IMG/VR virus record: IMGVR_UViG_2541047172_000012
From: a virus
Lineage: Duplodnaviria; Heunggongvirae; Uroviricota; Caudoviricetes
DNA length: 5,663 nt
Direction: 5' to 3' (one strand)
Part shown: one piece after another, positions 376-5,663 of the stretch
Layout: every line of letters begins with the position of its first letter
How positions within the stretch are numbered: the stretch's first letter is position 1
Made by a program: the position numbers and the translations under genes
The notes under the pieces: model-generated
The model's input: only the letters and a program-made list of their open reading frames with translations
The model's database searches: none
What the model was told of the DNA's origin: nothing

Positions 376-452
376 GTTGATAGATCCAGTAATGACCTCA
401 GAACTCCATCTGGATTTGTTCAGAACGCTCGGTTGCCGCCGGGCGTTTTTTA
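376..452 (+). ncRNA. oop: oop antisense RNA, about 77 nt, overlapping the 3' end of cII
   Basis: Position matches lambda oop relative to cII/O, and it ends in an intrinsic terminator (stem 426-432/439-445, U-tract 446-451). Exact 5' end is from recalled lambda coordinates. Confidence 0.6.
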
Positions 453-691
453 TTGGTGAGAATCGCAGCAACTTGTCGCGCCAATCGAGCCATGTCGTCG
501 TCAACGACCCCCCATTCAAGAACAGCAAGCAGCATTGAGAACTTTGGAATCCAGTCTCTCTTCCACCTGCTGATCTGCGACTTATCAACTCCCACAGCTT
601 CCGCTGTCTTCTCAGTTCCAAGCATTGCGATTTTGTTAAGCAACGCACTCTCGATTCGTAGAGCCTCGTTGCGTTTGTTTGCACGAACCAT
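398..691 (-). CDS. cII: Transcriptional activator CII (97 aa)
   Basis: Track ORF 398..751 contains MVRANKRNEALRIESALLNKIAMLGTEKTAEAVGVDKSQISRWKRDWIPKFSMLLAVLEWGVVDDDMARLARQVAAILTNKKRPAATERSEQIQMEF from the internal Met at 691..689, preceded by the lambda-like AAGGAAATACTTACAT leader. The upstream in-frame Met at 751 lacks an RBS. Confidence 0.95.
   Translation of the reverse strand: MVRANKRNEALRIESALLNKIAMLGTEKTAEAVGVDKSQISRWKRDWIPKFSMLLAVLEWGVVDDDMARLARQVAAILTNKKRPAATERSEQIQMEF
426..451 (+). terminator. Intrinsic terminator of oop RNA
   Basis: 7-bp GC-rich stem CGCTCGG/CCGGGCG (one G-U pair), 6-nt loop, followed by TTTTTT. Confidence 0.7.
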
Positions 692-705
692 ATGTAAGTA
701 TTTCC
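669..705 (+). promoter_or_regulatory. PRE promoter with CII-binding direct repeats
   Basis: TTGC (669-672) and TTGC (679-682) separated by 6 bp, flanking the -35 region, with a weak AAGTAT -10-like hexamer downstream. It overlaps the cII start on the opposite strand and points toward cro/cI antisense, as in lambda. Confidence 0.6.
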
Positions 706-770
706 TTAGATAACAATTGATTGAATGTATGCAAATAAATGCATACACCATAGGTGTGGTTTAATTGGAT

Positions 771-809: not shown

Positions 810-1019
<210 letters not shown>

Positions 1020-1107: not shown

Positions 1108-1824
<717 letters not shown>

Positions 1825-2198
1825 AGAGGATAGATGGAGTTTAATGGCCATGAGTATCAAGCGGTCAAAAAGAAGTTCATCTATTCATTGAAAGCATAAG
1901 GCCATCTGAGTATATCCGTAATGATCTGGATATTGTCTATAACATCAATGACCGGACGATAGATATCGGTGAGCAGCGTCCTGTATGGCAGGGTGAGGCA
2001 GGTGAAAAAACGTCCTGCCATCAACAAGAATCAAGTGCATCCGCTCTCTGGACAGATGGAAAATTTATTGGATGCAAAAAGATATGAAATAACACCTGTA
2101 TAGCACGGAGCTTTCTCTGACCGATGCACTTGAAGTTGTTAGGGCTGACCCAGCCTGCTGTTTCTTTAGGTAAGAGAAAAGAGATTTAGGAGATGAAA

Positions 2199-2225
2199 GG
2201 TCGCAGAGGTGCGGCCTTTTTTATT
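2199..2225 (+). terminator. Intrinsic terminator closing the non-coding region downstream of cI
   Basis: 7-bp stem GGTCGCA/TGCGGCC (one G-U), GAGG tetraloop, followed by TTTTTTATT. Confidence 0.6.
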
Positions 2226-2234
2226 GAGAGTGGA

Positions 2235-2267
2235 TCTTGAACGGAAATTCTCAAGACTTGAGTCTTG
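2235..2267. promoter_or_regulatory. Overlapping inverted repeats upstream of the 173-aa gene (operator-like)
   Basis: TCTTGA-N10-TCAAGA (2235-2256) and CAAGAC-TTGA-GTCTTG (2252-2267) share an arm. A GCATGC palindrome follows at 2266-2271. Confidence 0.35.
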
Positions 2268-2293
2268 CATGCAAATCAATTCCTGGATAAACT
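2265..2293 (+). promoter_or_regulatory. Candidate sigma70 promoter for the 173-aa gene
   Basis: TTGCAT (2265-2270), 17-bp spacer, TAAACT (2288-2293). It sits just downstream of a terminator and about 30 bp upstream of a purine-rich RBS (AGAGAGAGAG) and the ATG at 2326. Confidence 0.3.
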
Positions 2294-2325
2294 CGATCTG
2301 AGTCAATAACTTAGAGAGAGAGCAA

Positions 2326-2847
2326 ATGGCAAAGTCAAACGTTAGCGTGCAGGCATTCAAGGACTTCCTTGAAGAGCTTATGTCGCTGAACATAATGAAG
2401 GAGGCCACCGCTCGAAATTTAAAAAACTCATCCGCTCGCCTCTTAACGGTAGTCCAAGAAGAGGAAATGGGTGATGTTACTCAGCTTGATGTGAATGAGC
2501 TTGCCGAGCGATACATCAACGCAACTGAGCCGAAGCCTAGCGACAGCAGCATTACTGCATATAAAAGCCGCATGGAAAGTGCAATCAAAAAGTTTGTAGC
2601 TTTCCAGTCTGGTGAAGAAATCCCATACACTCCGATTGACAAAGAATCCAGTGAGGAAAAAGATTTGACTGGCGAACCAACAAAAGTCGAAGGCAAGGCT
2701 AATGCACTTCATACCTATGATCTTCCAGTAGTTCTTCGACCTGAATCAGGGGTTACAGTAACGATTAAAGGCATTCCTAACGATATCACAAACGAAGAAG
2801 CCGAACGCATCTCTTCAATTCTGAAGGTTTACGTTCGGCCTCAATAA
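2326..2847 (+). CDS. Hypothetical acidic protein (173 aa); cargo gene at the position of lambda rexA/rexB
   Basis: Clean 173-codon ORF with a purine-rich RBS, MAKSNVSVQAFKDFLEELMSLNIMKEATARNLKNSSARLLTVVQEEEMGDVTQLDVNELAERY... No resemblance to RexA/RexB or any family I recognise; E/D-rich, no obvious HTH or hydrophobic segment. Opposite-strand ORFs overlapping it are shorter and lack signals. Confidence 0.7.
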   Translation: MAKSNVSVQAFKDFLEELMSLNIMKEATARNLKNSSARLLTVVQEEEMGDVTQLDVNELAERYINATEPKPSDSSITAYKSRMESAIKKFVAFQSGEEIPYTPIDKESSEEKDLTGEPTKVEGKANALHTYDLPVVLRPESGVTVTIKGIPNDITNEEAERISSILKVYVRPQ

Positions 2848-3020
2848 TGCAAAAGCATTCAGCACAATGTCCAACTCCCCAGTCCGACATTGATGCTGTT
2901 TAACCAGAGCCTCCAAAAGGAGCCCTTGTTAAGGTACACAATATTTGCGATGTAACCTTAGCGCGTCTGGTACATTTTTTCAAGCGGTTGTAGGGCTGCC
3001 GCCAATATGAGAAAACACAG

Positions 3021-3143
3021 ATGTCTACATACAATTTGAATGACCAATTCGATCGAGAAGTTCATGTGAATGCCTATGAACGGATAAGGCATGGAAATCT
3101 TGAACATGTGTGTGAGCATTATCGCTCAAGGCCACACCGCTAA
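3021..3143 (+). CDS. Candidate small ORF (40 aa, His/Cys-rich), or the body of a terminator-capped small RNA
   Basis: ATG at 3021 to TAA at 3141-3143 encodes MSTYNLNDQFDREVHVNAYERIRHGNLEHVCEHYRSRPHR, ending 7 nt before a strong intrinsic terminator. No convincing Shine-Dalgarno; a possible promoter (TTCAAG-18-CAATAT, 2979-3008) would make it near-leaderless. Confidence 0.25.
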   Translation: MSTYNLNDQFDREVHVNAYERIRHGNLEHVCEHYRSRPHR

Positions 3144-3150
3144 TCATCAA

Positions 3151-3179
3151 CCCGGCCTCCATGCCGGGTTTTCTTTTCC
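3151..3179 (+). terminator. Strong intrinsic terminator, positionally analogous to lambda tIMM
   Basis: Stem CCCGGC (3151-3156) / GCCGGG (3163-3168), 6-nt loop, then TTTTCTTTTCC. Confidence 0.75.
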
Positions 3180-3357
3180 TCTCGCCCAAAAAAACACATA
3201 ACCAATTGTATTTATTGGAAAATAAATAGATACAACTCACTAAACAACGCAATTCTGATCTCTCCTTACATCGCCGAGGCAATACACCCACGCTAAAAAA
3301 CAATACTATTAAATACAAAGCGTTGTAAAAAAACGCCCCGTTTTAGAACAAATTGTA

Positions 3358-3386
3358 TTGACCAAGTGAAGTACATATCGTACTAT
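3358..3386 (+). promoter_or_regulatory. PL-like promoter upstream of nutL and N
   Basis: TTGACC (3358-3363), 17-bp spacer, TACTAT (3381-3386), set in an AT-rich region about 190 bp upstream of N. Flanked by short inverted repeats (TACAAAGCGTTGTA 3314-3327, ACAAATTGT 3348-3356, AGTAC-N5-GTACT 3370-3384) but no lambda-type 17-mer operators. Confidence 0.5.
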
Positions 3387-3432
3387 TTAACCATCAGCAG
3401 GACGCTGGAAGCCAAATGGAACAGACTGGCAG

Positions 3433-3477
3433 GCTCTTTAAACAACGTCGACTCTCGACTACGTGGCTGAAAAGCCA
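3433..3477 (+). promoter_or_regulatory. nutL-like site: boxA (3433-3445) and boxB hairpin (3464-3477)
   Basis: GCTCTTTAAACAA resembles the boxA consensus (CGCTCTTTAACAA). Downstream, TGGCT-GAAA-AGCCA forms a 5-bp stem with a GAAA loop. Both lie in the leader between the promoter and N. Confidence 0.5.
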
Positions 3478-3575
3478 GATCACCCAACCACATAAGCTGT
3501 GGGATGCAATGCCGAAGCAACCGTCTCAGGAGGAGCTTCGAGATTGCATCGCCAAAGTTTATTCGGGAGGAATCT

Positions 3576-3848
3576 ATGTCCAGAAAAACAGAATTTAAAG
3601 GCACCGCAGCTTCTCGCCGTAGAGCTCGTCGCGCAAACCTGCAAAGTCAGGAGGCGATTAGCTCCGACAAACTACACAGGCCAACCCCATCACGAGTGGT
3701 CTTACAATGCAAACGCAAACCAGCAATGAGAGCAGAAGTAATAACACTGACAACGTTGACCAGAAAATATGAAGGCTCAACTTGTCTTCCAAATGTAGCT
3801 CTTTACGCGGCAGGCTACCGTAAATCCAAACAACTGACAGCAAGATGA
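3576..3848 (+). CDS. N: Antitermination protein N, P22 gene-24-like rather than lambda-like (90 aa)
   Basis: Start chosen at ATG 3576 with strong RBS GGGAGG (3565-3570); the track ORF begins at an upstream Met (3504) with no RBS. It has an N-terminal arginine-rich motif (TAASRRRARRANLQ) and a C-terminus CLPNVALYAAGYRKSKQLTAR that closely resembles the P22 N C-terminus as I recall it (LLPGVALYAAGHRKSKQITAR). Confidence 0.75.
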   Translation: MSRKTEFKGTAASRRRARRANLQSQEAISSDKLHRPTPSRVVLQCKRKPAMRAEVITLTTLTRKYEGSTCLPNVALYAAGYRKSKQLTAR

Positions 3849-3898
3849 CTTGTGTTGGTCGCCAGAAAATGAAATTAGGCAGCAAACCACTTATTTGA
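3845..3898 (+). pseudogene. Relic of a lambda/21-type N C-terminus in the +1 frame, overlapping the N stop codon
   Basis: Frame open from 3824; ATG 3845 to TGA 3898 encodes MTCVGRQKMKLGSKPLI, resembling the C-terminal residues of lambda N (ITCSGRQKIKGKSIPLI) and phage 21 N (VTCVGRQKIKLGSKPLI), both from memory. Confidence 0.45.
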
Positions 3899-3906
3899 GG
3901 TGATAT

Positions 3907-4158
3907 ATGGAATTTCATGAAAGTGCGATTTGTGATTTTCGCGCTAACGCAAATTCAGTAAAACCACAGCCAATTGCAGTTCTTTTTAAAACAATGGGTG
4001 CGTGGGCTGTTTTATGCTTCGCCGCTGACGACACTGACGCAAGAATGGCAATAGGACAAGAGATGGAGATGGACCCGACAAACGATGAATTCATAATTTA
4101 TGGCGCTCCATCTAATTACTTACTTGATACCTGCAACATTTACAACAAGGCTGCCTGA
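3907..4158 (+). CDS. Hypothetical small protein (83 aa), first gene after N in the leftward early operon
   Basis: ATG 3907 preceded by RBS GAGGTGA (3898-3904); MEFHESAICDFRANANSVKPQPIAVLFKTMGAWAVLCFAADDTDARMAIGQEMEMDPTNDEFIIYGAPSNYLLDTCNIYNKAA. It sits where lambda has ral or small orfs; I do not recognise the sequence. Confidence 0.65.
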   Translation: MEFHESAICDFRANANSVKPQPIAVLFKTMGAWAVLCFAADDTDARMAIGQEMEMDPTNDEFIIYGAPSNYLLDTCNIYNKAA

Positions 4159-4204
4159 TGGTGGCCTTTATTTTTGGCATAAACAACAGAATAAACACAG
4201 CACT

Positions 4205-4232
4205 GTGTATTCATTCCAACGAGTGAATACAC
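4205..4232. repeat. Perfect 9-bp inverted repeat with 10-bp spacer in an intergenic region
   Basis: GTGTATTCA (4205-4213) ... TGAATACAC (4224-4232). No adjacent T-tract on either strand, so it is not a typical intrinsic terminator. Confidence 0.5.
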
Positions 4233-4294
4233 GGAGCAATGTCGCTCGTAACTAAACAGGAGCCGACTTGTTCTGATTATTGGAAATCTTCTTT

Positions 4295-4320
4295 GCCCTC
4301 CAATGTGAGGGCGATTTTTT
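4295..4320 (+). terminator. Intrinsic terminator upstream of ea10
   Basis: Stem GCCCTC (4295-4300) / GAGGGC (4307-4312), 6-nt loop, then GATTTTTT. Confidence 0.65.
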
Positions 4321-4340
4321 ATCTGTGAGGATATGAACAG

Positions 4341-4709
4341 ATGTCAAACATCAAAAAATACATCATTGATTACGACTGGAAAGCATCAATAGAAATTGAA
4401 ATCGACCATGACGTAATGACAGAGGAAAAACTTCACCAGATTAATAATTTCTGGTCAGACTCTGAATACCGACTCAATAAACACGGCTCTTTATTAAATG
4501 CTGTATTAATCATGCTGGCGCAACATGCTCTGCTTATAGCAATTTCAAGCGACTTAAATGCATATGGTGTTGTGTGTGAGTTCGACTGGAATGATGGAAA
4601 TGGTCAGGAAGGATGGCCTTCAATGGATGGTAGCGAAGGAATAAGAATTACCGATATCGATACATCAGGAATATTTGATTCAGATGATATGACTATCAAG
4701 GCCGCCTGA
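4341..4709 (+). CDS. ea10: Ea10 protein (122 aa)
   Basis: MSNIKKYIIDYDWKASIEIEIDHDVMTEEKLHQINNFWSDSEYRLNKHGS... matches lambda Ea10 as I recall it, in the correct position upstream of cIII. Confidence 0.85.
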   Translation: MSNIKKYIIDYDWKASIEIEIDHDVMTEEKLHQINNFWSDSEYRLNKHGSLLNAVLIMLAQHALLIAISSDLNAYGVVCEFDWNDGNGQEGWPSMDGSEGIRITDIDTSGIFDSDDMTIKAA

Positions 4710-4732
4710 GCGCGGCGTTACCGCATACCAAT

Positions 4733-4756
4733 AACGCTTCACTCGAGGCGTTTTTC
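4733..4756 (+). terminator. Terminator-like hairpin between ea10 and cIII
   Basis: Stem AACGCTTC / GAGGCGTT (with one G-U pair) around an ACTC loop, followed by TTTTT. It may be a partial terminator or a structure affecting cIII translation. Confidence 0.4.
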
Positions 4757-4781
4757 GTTATGTATAAATAAGGAGCACACC

Positions 4782-4946
4782 ATGCAATATGCCATTGCAG
4801 GGTGGCCTGTTGCTGGCTGCCCTTCCGAATCTTTACTTGAACGAATCACCCGTAAATTACGTGACGGATGGAAACGCCTTATCGACATACTTAATCAGCC
4901 AGGAGTCCCAAAAAATGGATCAAACACTTATGGCTATCCAGACTAA
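4782..4946 (+). CDS. cIII: CIII, inhibitor of FtsH that stabilises CII (54 aa)
   Basis: RBS AGGAG (4771-4775); [54 protein letters not shown] matches lambda CIII. Below the track's length threshold, so it was found by manual translation. Confidence 0.93.
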   Translation: MQYAIAGWPVAGCPSESLLERITRKLRDGWKRLIDILNQPGVPKNGSNTYGYPD

Positions 4947-5058
4947 ATTCACTATCGCCACTTTTATTGGCGATGAAAAGATGTTTCGTGAGGCCGTCGA
5001 CGCTTATAAAAAATGGATATTAATGCTGAAACTGAGATCAAGCAAAAGCATTCACTAA
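4915..5058 (+). CDS. kil: Kil, host-killing and FtsZ-inhibiting protein (47 aa)
   Basis: Internal Met of track ORF 4789..5058: [47 protein letters not shown], with RBS AGGAG (4901-4905). It overlaps the cIII 3' end and the gam 5' end as in lambda. Confidence 0.9.
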
Positions 5059-5429
5059 CCCCCTTTCCTGTTTTCCTAATCAGCCTGGCATTTCGCGGGC
5101 GATATTTTCACAGCTATTTCAGGAGTTCAGCCATGAACGCTTATTACATTCAGGATCGTCTTGAGGCTCAGAGCTGGACGCGTCACTACCAGCAGATCGC
5201 CCGTGAAGAGAAAGAGGCAGAACTGGCAGACGACATGGGAAAAGGTCTGCCCCAGCACCTGTTTGAATCACTCTGCATCGATCATTTGCAACGCCACGGG
5301 GCCAGCAAAAAAGCCATTACCCGTGCGTTTGATGACGATGTTGAGTTTCAGGAGCGCATGGCAGAACACATCCGGTACATGGTTGAAACCATTGCTCACC
5401 ACCAGGTTGATATTGATTCAGAGGTATAA
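5013..5429 (+). CDS. gam: Gam, inhibitor of host RecBCD nuclease (138-aa long form; short form starts at 5133)
   Basis: [55 protein letters not shown]... matches lambda Gam. The internal start at 5133 (MNAYYIQ) has RBS AGGAG at 5121-5125. Confidence 0.93.
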
Positions 5430-5434
5430 AGCGG

Positions 5435-5663
5435 ATGAGTACAGCACTCGCAACGCTGGCAGGGAAGCTGGCTGAACGTGTCGGCATGGATTCTGTCGAC
5501 CCACAGGAACTGATCACCACTCTTCGCCAGACGGCATTTAAAGGTGATGCCAGCGATGCGCAGTTCATCGCATTGTTGATCGTCGCCAACCAGTACGGCC
5601 TTAATCCGTGGACGAAAGAAATTTACGCCTTCCCTGATAAGCAGAACGGCATCGTTCCGGTGG
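5435..5663 (+). CDS. bet: Bet (Red-beta) single-strand annealing protein, N-terminal 76 codons; continues past the window end
   Basis: ATG 5435 translates to MSTALATLAGKLAERVGMDSVDPQELITTLRQTAFKGDASDAQFIALLIVANQYGLNPWTKEIYAFPDKQNGIVPV, matching lambda Bet. Not in the ORF track because no stop falls within the window. Confidence 0.95.
   Translation, partial: MSTALATLAGKLAERVGMDSVDPQELITTLRQTAFKGDASDAQFIALLIVANQYGLNPWTKEIYAFPDKQNGIVPV

Follow-up and report, generated by a model that had tools for sequence, protein, structure and literature searches.

An 83-residue early protein that replaces orf28-ral in the pL operon of lambdoid phages and may act against host defence

The stretch of DNA analyzed here, 5,663 nucleotides (nt) of the virus record IMGVR_UViG_2541047172_000012 and referred to as the window, comprises the immunity region and the early-left part of a lambdoid phage genome, with pL transcription drawn from left to right. 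Behind the antiterminator gene N it encodes an 83-amino-acid (aa) protein in the open reading frame (ORF) that we call ORF83. The first accessory slot of the pL operon in lambdoid phages was found to hold either ORF83 or the lambda gene pair orf28-ral and nothing else. Judged by its pattern of substitutions, ORF83 is a genuine protein-coding gene under strong purifying selection, and its position tentatively suggests a role in counter-defence.

A preliminary description of this DNA had placed the gene at the ral position and first after N, and both statements held exactly. N (3576-3848) is followed by ORF83 with no gene between them, and the junctions with lambda lie at the orf28 start and at the ral end. 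On the left, window positions 3882-3912 match lambda 34381-34352 (the orf28 ribosome-binding site and start). Here the similarity is limited to CCACT(T)ATTT(G/A)AGGTGATATATGGAA, which comprises the orf28 ribosome-binding site, the start codon and the second codon (ATG-GAA). On the right, identity restarts 17 nt before the ral end at AACAA(G/A)GCTGCCTGA, the final five ral codons, and window positions 4142-5545 match lambda 34103-32700 with 98.2% identity. Thus, ORF83 is an exact replacement of orf28 plus ral.

The occupants of this slot were surveyed in viral contigs by locating the 3' arm of the downstream hairpin with its T-run and identifying the gene that ends there. In 120 viral contigs this gene was always either Ral, often truncated, or ORF83. 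Among 216 fetched loci, ral was present in 101 and ORF83 in 112, and none carried both. In the P22-like phage S9-5 an antisense sieB precedes the ORF83 homologue, the same arrangement as for orf28-ral in lambda. Hence, the equivalence of ORF83 is to the ral slot and not merely to whatever comes after N. About 30% of the ral copies (loci L096-L215, contigs of the terminator scan) were disrupted, whereas ORF83 copies were nearly always intact. A recurrent premature stop in ral leaves just ...QNNKAA (16 contigs), and a recurrent internal deletion results in 23-aa remnants.

ORF83 and orf28-ral share the slot in the pL operon as well as its left and right linkers, and both ral and ORF83 end with N-K-A-A and a stop codon inside the same terminator hairpin. 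In contrast, lambda has two overlapping ORFs (orf28 and ral) where ORF83 is a single ORF, and lambda Ral is Cys-rich and basic (net charge about +3 by count) whereas ORF83 is acidic and without a Cys cluster. Ral (PF11058) enhances modification and thereby alleviates type I (EcoKI/EcoBI) restriction. BLASTP gave no alignment between ORF83 and Ral, hhalign returned a probability of 0.2%, and no PF11058 match of ORF83 was obtained in Pfam at E<=1, the positive control Ral scoring E=1.6e-48. Kinship of ORF83 to Ral or Ea10 was rejected, with no sequence or profile similarity to the former and none to the latter. No lambda gene of established function matched ORF83.

The strong ribosome-binding site and clean reading frame described earlier were recovered: GAGGTGAT precedes an 83-aa ORF from ATG to TGA, with the GAGGT core 5 nt from the ATG. 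The ratio of nonsynonymous to synonymous substitution rates (dN/dS) against homologues of 70-83% identity was 0.07-0.19, and polymorphism fell mostly on third codon positions (19 of 32 sites). The 94 loci compared comprised 47 distinct coding sequences, at least 11 of which give exactly the identical protein; 39 distinct sequences are of the E. coli type. Premature stops were found in none of the 94 loci, and length variants were restricted to two stop-loss extensions, one in-frame 9-nt duplication and one 3-nt deletion. The stop was lost by a 1-nt deletion in HK633 (locus L014) and by a TGA-to-TTA change in locus L020, resulting in proteins of 129 and 91 aa that read through the terminator. 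The 9-nt duplication (DDT-DDT) yields an 86-aa protein in several Stx2 (Shiga toxin 2) phages (loci L088/L091; YYZ-2008, 1717, Stx2a_F349). The full frame is also kept in homologues from Citrobacter, Klebsiella, Enterobacter and Salmonella phages. An alignment of 10 sequences contained 43 invariant columns, and the conserved core reads K19-PQPIAVLFK-28, W33, VLCFA, D44-A, IGQE, D56-x-TN, F62-x-IYGAP and T75-C. Such a core suggests a specific fold and a specific partner.

ORF83 corresponds to PHROG 2471 over its entire length (residues 1-83 against profile positions 1-83 of 83, E=1.4e-61), an entry without functional annotation. The exact protein was found on at least 1000 contigs. The gene was present in 403 of 5426 complete E. 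coli genomes, always labeled 'hypothetical protein', and in 400 of the 403 at least 80% of the gene was matched. Furthermore, it occurred in 56 phage records. Its carriers include VT2-Sakai, the Stx1 and Stx2-II converting phages, 2851, phi330, HK106, HK633, mEp234, Gally and JEP4, and two P22-like Salmonella phages encode it at 75% identity. An exhaustive hidden Markov model (HMM) search of 1.84 billion cluster representatives gave nothing outside this narrow enterobacterial family. The repeat proteins P0035 and P0036 from this search were rejected, their scores being sums of weak repeat matches.

ORF83 and ea10 had been described as both ending in K-A-A followed by TGA with a similar 3' sequence, and a short shared recombination motif had been suspected. 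The similarity is real and takes the form of a 13-nt motif, CAAGGCYGCCTGA, with copies CAAGGCTGCCTGA at 4146-4158 and CAAGGCCGCCTGA at 4697-4709, the only two in the window. About 0.01 matches were expected by chance, and none of 200 shuffled sequences contained two copies. The suspicion of recombination stood only in part. The two genes share their 3' ends and both ends are located at boundaries of mosaic modules, but the motif AAGGCYGCC-TGA is the 5' arm plus loop of a GC-rich, stop-straddling hairpin, and no exchange between the ORF83 and ea10 copies was seen at any locus. Recombination between the two motifs was rejected, as no ORF83-ea10 hybrid junction was found among 34 distinct 3' ends.

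The hairpin at the end of ORF83, AAGGCTGCC-TGAT-GGTGGCCTT followed by TATTTTT, has a 9-bp stem and a 4-nt loop. Its 5' arm is made up of the last three codons of the gene (AAG GCT GCC), and its loop contains the stop codon. The folding energy of the hairpin is -13.4 to -13.9 kcal/mol (z = -2.3). By structure, T-run and conservation this hairpin is predicted to be a standard intrinsic terminator, and the authors of the mEp234 GenBank record independently annotated it, together with the next one, as rho-independent terminators. The design with the stop codon in the loop was kept in every lineage examined, with energies of about -10 to -16 kcal/mol in five lineages. Whereas the window hairpin (AAGGCTGCC / TGAT / GGTGGCCTT) was computed at -13.4 kcal/mol, the Citrobacter and Salmonella form (AGGCTGCC / TAACT / GGCGGCCT) reaches -15.5 kcal/mol, the Klebsiella form (AGGCCGTC / TGAT / GGCGGCCT) -15.1 kcal/mol, and the Enterobacter form (AAGGCCG / CATAGT / CGGCCTT) -10.1 kcal/mol.

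The differences between lineages preserve pairing, being wobble-compatible. In Klebsiella the homologue ends with Q-A-V through a C-to-T change that retains a G·U pair. A valine with the pairing retained suggests that the constraint on the last codons acts at the RNA level rather than at the protein level. An Ala-Ala degradation tag as the cause of the K-A-A ends was rejected on the grounds of this Q-A-V end and of an ea10-type hairpin that stands alone and non-coding in locus L061. A strong hairpin specific to ORF83 was likewise rejected, because ral carries both versions, the strong form in 48 copies and the weak lambda form (-4.3 kcal/mol) in 50 copies. Hence, the hairpin is a shared linker and not allele-specific. 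The ea10-end hairpin also has the TGA in its loop, lacks a T-run, and folds as is ordinary for its composition (z = -0.41). In locus L039 an unrelated protein in the ea10 slot ends with ...ETSAA* on an ea10-type hairpin. This element is a boundary linker of the ea10 slot. The recurring Ala-Ala-stop arises as a side effect of having GC(C/T)GCC hairpin arms where modules meet.

The left side of the cassette carries a trace of a different N gene. In the -1 frame the spacer 3849-3906 reads MTCVGRQKMKLGSKPLI*, which is the in-frame C-terminus of the lambda-type N of HK633 (L014), where the TGA of N lies within the ORF83 ribosome-binding site. Lambda N ends with ...GITCSGRQKIKGKSIPLI*, resembling the spacer peptide, and N of Klebsiella and Enterobacter ends likewise. 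In the window, the body of a lambda-type N has thus been exchanged for an N of the HK97/Stx type (ending ...LTAR*), and only its 3' end persists, as a fossil. Lambda retains a trace of this N junction upstream of orf28. A stable hairpin was not found in the spacer (z = +0.33).

On its left side the ORF83 module has mosaic boundaries grouped around 3852, 3880 and 3901, inside the N fossil, and on its right side around 4170-4175, 4185 and 4316. The left linker thus consists of the N 3' end, or its fossil, plus the GAGGTGA ribosome-binding site. Breakpoints grouped in this way, around the 3' end of N with the ribosome-binding site and around terminator hairpins, resemble those of the boundary-sequence model of the modular evolution of lambdoid phages. 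Unlike plain boundary sequences, both ORF83 linkers have a function of their own, the left one as coding sequence for the N C-terminus and ribosome-binding site and the right one as terminator. A 'boundary sequence 4' was reportedly annotated by Degnan et al. in 2007 just downstream of the ORF83 gene in EF120460. ORF83 was found with at least three unrelated N families. In Citrobacter-type loci (L005/L007) the homologue lies between an upstream PF25694 N_peptide and a downstream PF26859 Phage_N_antitermin protein, and in locus L004 TerB-like and DUF3927 proteins are encoded upstream of it, with N reduced to a 'GKSTPLI*' relic.

We regard this anatomy of the slot, the hairpin account of the K-A-A ends and the N fossil as well supported, with high confidence. 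Part of it was already known: ORF83 has been catalogued as a hypothetical protein, and the slot, mosaic exchange and terminators are classical lambdoid features. The modest new contributions are the definition of ORF83 as the sole alternative to orf28-ral in this slot, the explanation of the K-A-A motif and the identification of the N fossil.

The protein had been described as unknown, and the homology and structure searches assigned no function to it. Matches were found neither in Pfam and PADLOC (both at E<=1) nor in NCBIfam, and PDB sequences gave only noise (E >= 0.09). A literature search retrieved no paper on the gene. AlphaFold models of the window protein and the Citrobacter homologue reached predicted local distance difference test (pLDDT) values of 57 and 69, a low to moderate confidence, and both have an alpha-beta-beta-alpha-beta-alpha topology. 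No fold was assigned, as three Foldseek searches, two of the PDB and one of BFVD, gave best E values of 0.2-0.9 with template modeling (TM) scores below 0.5 and no neighbor for either model. ORF83 is mildly acidic (12 acidic and 5 basic residues, 14% acidic, isoelectric point (pI) 4.24). The Salmonella homologue from S9-5 has 10 acidic and 7 basic residues (pI 4.87), and the net charge of the Citrobacter homologue is only about -3 by count from the aligned sequence. The hydrophobic segment of residues 22-40 was rejected as a membrane helix, because it contains D/E in homologues and is modeled as a beta-hairpin. ORF83 is accordingly predicted to be soluble. A relation to SieB was not supported either: ORF83 did not match PF14163, and a true SieB is encoded beside the homologue in S9-5.

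A terminator scan placed the first terminator-like site on the + strand after pL at the end of ORF83, and a promoter scan found no promoter-like site between pL and ORF83. With no terminator-like hairpin between N and ORF83 and the first one at the ORF83 end, ORF83 should lie on the pL transcript of N. It would be made from this transcript together with N, before or without N-dependent read-through, and, given that no promoter-like site separates it from pL, would be repressed in a normal lysogen. Where N is of the lambda type, its stop codon falls inside the ORF83 ribosome-binding site, an arrangement suggestive of translational coupling.

On this basis ORF83 can tentatively be regarded as an early inhibitor of a host protein that is made with N and most likely serves counter-defence, a reading that we rank first among the alternatives, consider possible and hold with some doubt. 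Its product would be a small soluble alpha/beta protein that acts early and binds and neutralizes a host protein. By position, the target would most likely be a component of restriction or of another defence, with ORF83 as a functional substitute of Ral. As ORF83 is unrelated to Ral, any Ral-like action must use a different mechanism. The grounds for defence are positional: the gene is allelic with an anti-restriction gene and is apparently made earliest in infection. Circumstantial support comes from phi330, which carries ORF83 and in which, unlike in the other phages of its authors, their DefenseFinder analysis reported no anti-restriction methylase or Ral (PMC12502783).

Several points weigh against this proposal. 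Neither in sequence nor in fold does ORF83 resemble Ral, Ocr, ArdA or another characterized protein, and the pLDDT of the AlphaFold models is low to moderate. Like T7 Ocr and ArdA it is small and acidic and lies near the start of the first transcribed operon for what would be very early action, but it differs from them by the absence of a profile or fold match and by its modest acidity, which is lower still in homologues. DNA mimicry is therefore unlikely. Position gives weak guidance, as a shared accessory slot in mosaic phages need not mean a shared function. In the supplements of an accessory-gene counter-defence screen (PMC12373910) the gene does not occur. In addition, Rho-dependent termination may occur between N and ORF83. 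In its most specific form the proposal would make ORF83 a counter-defence protein of new fold, produced with N in the first minutes, that neutralizes type I restriction or another immune component and takes the part of Ral in about 7% of E. coli genomes, among them O157:H7 Sakai with its Stx2 phage; stated this fully, it is somewhat unlikely.

ORF83 might instead modulate host physiology without relation to defence. Similar to its operon neighbors Kil, CIII and Gam, it would then be an early inhibitor of a host process, for example of division, replication, proteolysis or transcription. It shares the pL operon with kil, cIII and gam, its small size, solubility and strongly conserved core suggest one specific partner, and an anti-defence signature was not found in Pfam, NCBIfam or PADLOC. 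The only other occupant of the slot is, however, an anti-restriction gene, ORF83 has no similarity to Kil, CIII or known inhibitors, and no observation is specific to such a takeover function, which we consider rather unlikely.

The role of the cassette may also be mainly regulatory, with the peptide being secondary: translation into the stop-straddling terminator would gate pL read-through, or ORF83 would modulate N. By analogy with transcription-translation coupling, a ribosome terminating at the ORF83 stop would cover the hairpin. The position of the stop codon in the loop in all lineages examined, the rank of this hairpin as first terminator after pL and the tight linkage to N in most contexts agree with such a role. 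It is improbable, since purifying selection extends along the whole length of ORF83, far beyond the needs of a spacer ORF, and the same hairpin serves the unrelated gene ral. Moreover, the association with at least three unrelated N families and the sieB gene separating N and ORF83 in S9-5 argue against a specific partnership with N.

A benefit to the lysogen, with ORF83 expressed from the prophage for superinfection exclusion or defence, has a similarly small probability. It would account for the almost invariable integrity of ORF83 in prophages compared with the frequent truncation of ral, and exclusion genes (rex, sieB) occupy neighboring slots. Nevertheless, ORF83 should be repressed in the absence of a promoter-like site between pL and the gene, it has no membrane segment and no match among the PADLOC defence models, and sieB is not replaced by it since both co-occur in S9-5. 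Finally, that ORF83 is a non-functional chance ORF, or that the real feature is one of the antisense ORFs (3658-3918 or 3915-4094, - strand) annotated as hypothetical proteins in the AP005153 and phi330 records, is effectively refuted by the dN/dS and third-position polymorphism of the + frame, the preservation of that frame across genera at 70% identity, the intact loci and the strong ribosome-binding site, and has a negligible probability.

The features of the window are collected in Table 1. Positions 1414-5663 share 99.5% identity with the Stx1-converting phage AP005153 and many Stx2 phages, positions 551-1820 and 4142-5545 about 98% with lambda, and the whole window matches a single IMG/VR contig (L047) with 99.7% identity. 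N is annotated as such in phi330 and AP005153. The three 17-mers at pL are the 'putative operator' features of AP005153 and are similar to the OR operators of that phage. The assignment of nutL was inferred from the sequence; in mEp234 nutL is annotated at an analogous position. The only match of an Rfam search was the lambda cIII thermoregulator RNA element, which is intact at 4769-4827 (RF01804, 88.5 bits); positions 3850-4340 gave none.

Table 1. Features of the 5,663-nt window (aa, amino acids; nt, nucleotides).
Feature	Position	Strand	Basis or remark
cII	398-751	-	
cro	810-1010	-	
cI	1111-1824	+	
173-aa ORF	2326-2847	+	at the place of lambda rexA/rexB
Three operator-like 17-mers, Stx1-phage type	3311-3327, 3344-3360, 3369-3385	+	overlap pL
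pL-like promoter (TTGACC, 17 nt, TACTAT)	3358-3386	+	promoter scan; coincides with AP005153 promoter feature; would drive N, ORF83 and the early-left genes beyond
Putative nutL: boxA-like GGCTCTTTAAACAA and boxB-like hairpin TGGC-TGAAAA-GCCA	3432-3477	+	sequence reading
N, antiterminator, HK97/Stx type, 90 aa	3576-3848	+	PF25694 E=3.4e-32, PHROG 271
Spacer, 58 nt	3849-3906	+	lambda-type N 3'-end fossil and ORF83 Shine-Dalgarno sequence; left linker
ORF83, 83 aa, PHROG 2471	3907-4158	+	ATG to TGA
Predicted intrinsic-terminator hairpin	4147-4176	+	terminator scan; right linker, common to ral
Perfect 14-bp hairpin, ral-ea10 intergenic region	4203-4234	+	
Second predicted intrinsic terminator, just 5' of ea10	4293-4322	+	scans of window and lambda
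ea10 (DUF2528)	4341-4709	+	PF10800 E=7e-47; 98% identity to lambda
ea10-end hairpin GCCGC-CTGAGC-GCGGC	4697-4717	+	motif match
cIII	4782-4946	+	
kil; gam	5013-5429 (gam)	+	
bet	from 5435, past window end	+	

The second terminator has the form GCCCTC-CAATGT-GAGGGC followed by TTTTTT and is the one also marked in mEp234; it presumably belongs to the lambda tL2 cluster. The hairpin at 4203-4234 has a folding energy of -21.7 kcal/mol (z = -7.35), none of 200 shuffled sequences folded as well, and it lacks a T-run. It is located within the segment 98% identical to lambda and is thus present in lambda as well. We can only guess that it is a site of RNA processing or stability.

The immunity region is a hybrid. 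A lambda-type cI, including the N-terminal DNA-binding domain, and lambda-type OR1-OR3 (1037-1100) are combined with pL operators of the Stx1-phage type (3311-3385; AAATACA...TGTA...), and a lambda-type operator was not found at pL. A repressor of lambda specificity is therefore not expected to repress this pL. The join lies near 1414, within the shared C-terminal domain of cI. It was found only in one 6.8-kb IMG/VR contig, in none of the 5426 complete E. coli genomes and in none of 50,697 phage records. Its origin is either recombination, in a prophage that is defective, or a chimeric assembly. Downstream of cI, at the place of rexA/rexB, lie the 173-aa ORF (PHROG 2602), with only weak Phage_int_SAM-like matches, and a 40-aa ORF (3021-3143, + strand; PHROG 21154). 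Neither received an assignment from Pfam, NCBIfam or PADLOC, and both are candidates for accessory or defence genes expressed from the prophage. In mEp234 the slot at the rex position carries hicAB.

Overall, our analysis describes ordinary lambdoid mosaicism together with a testable lead and not a surprise. Whatever the function of ORF83, its locus is a clear case of functional elements that also serve as recombination linkers in mosaic phage genomes, and stop-straddling hairpins explain the Ala-Ala ends of several unrelated early-left proteins. The lead is readily testable, because mEp234, HK106 and HK633 plate on K-12 and ral provides a natural allelic control in an otherwise identical slot. 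If ORF83 does act in counter-defence, it would represent a family without relatives among known inhibitors and could affect the host range of Stx phages (VT2-Sakai, Stx1/Stx2-II), and hence the spread of stx.

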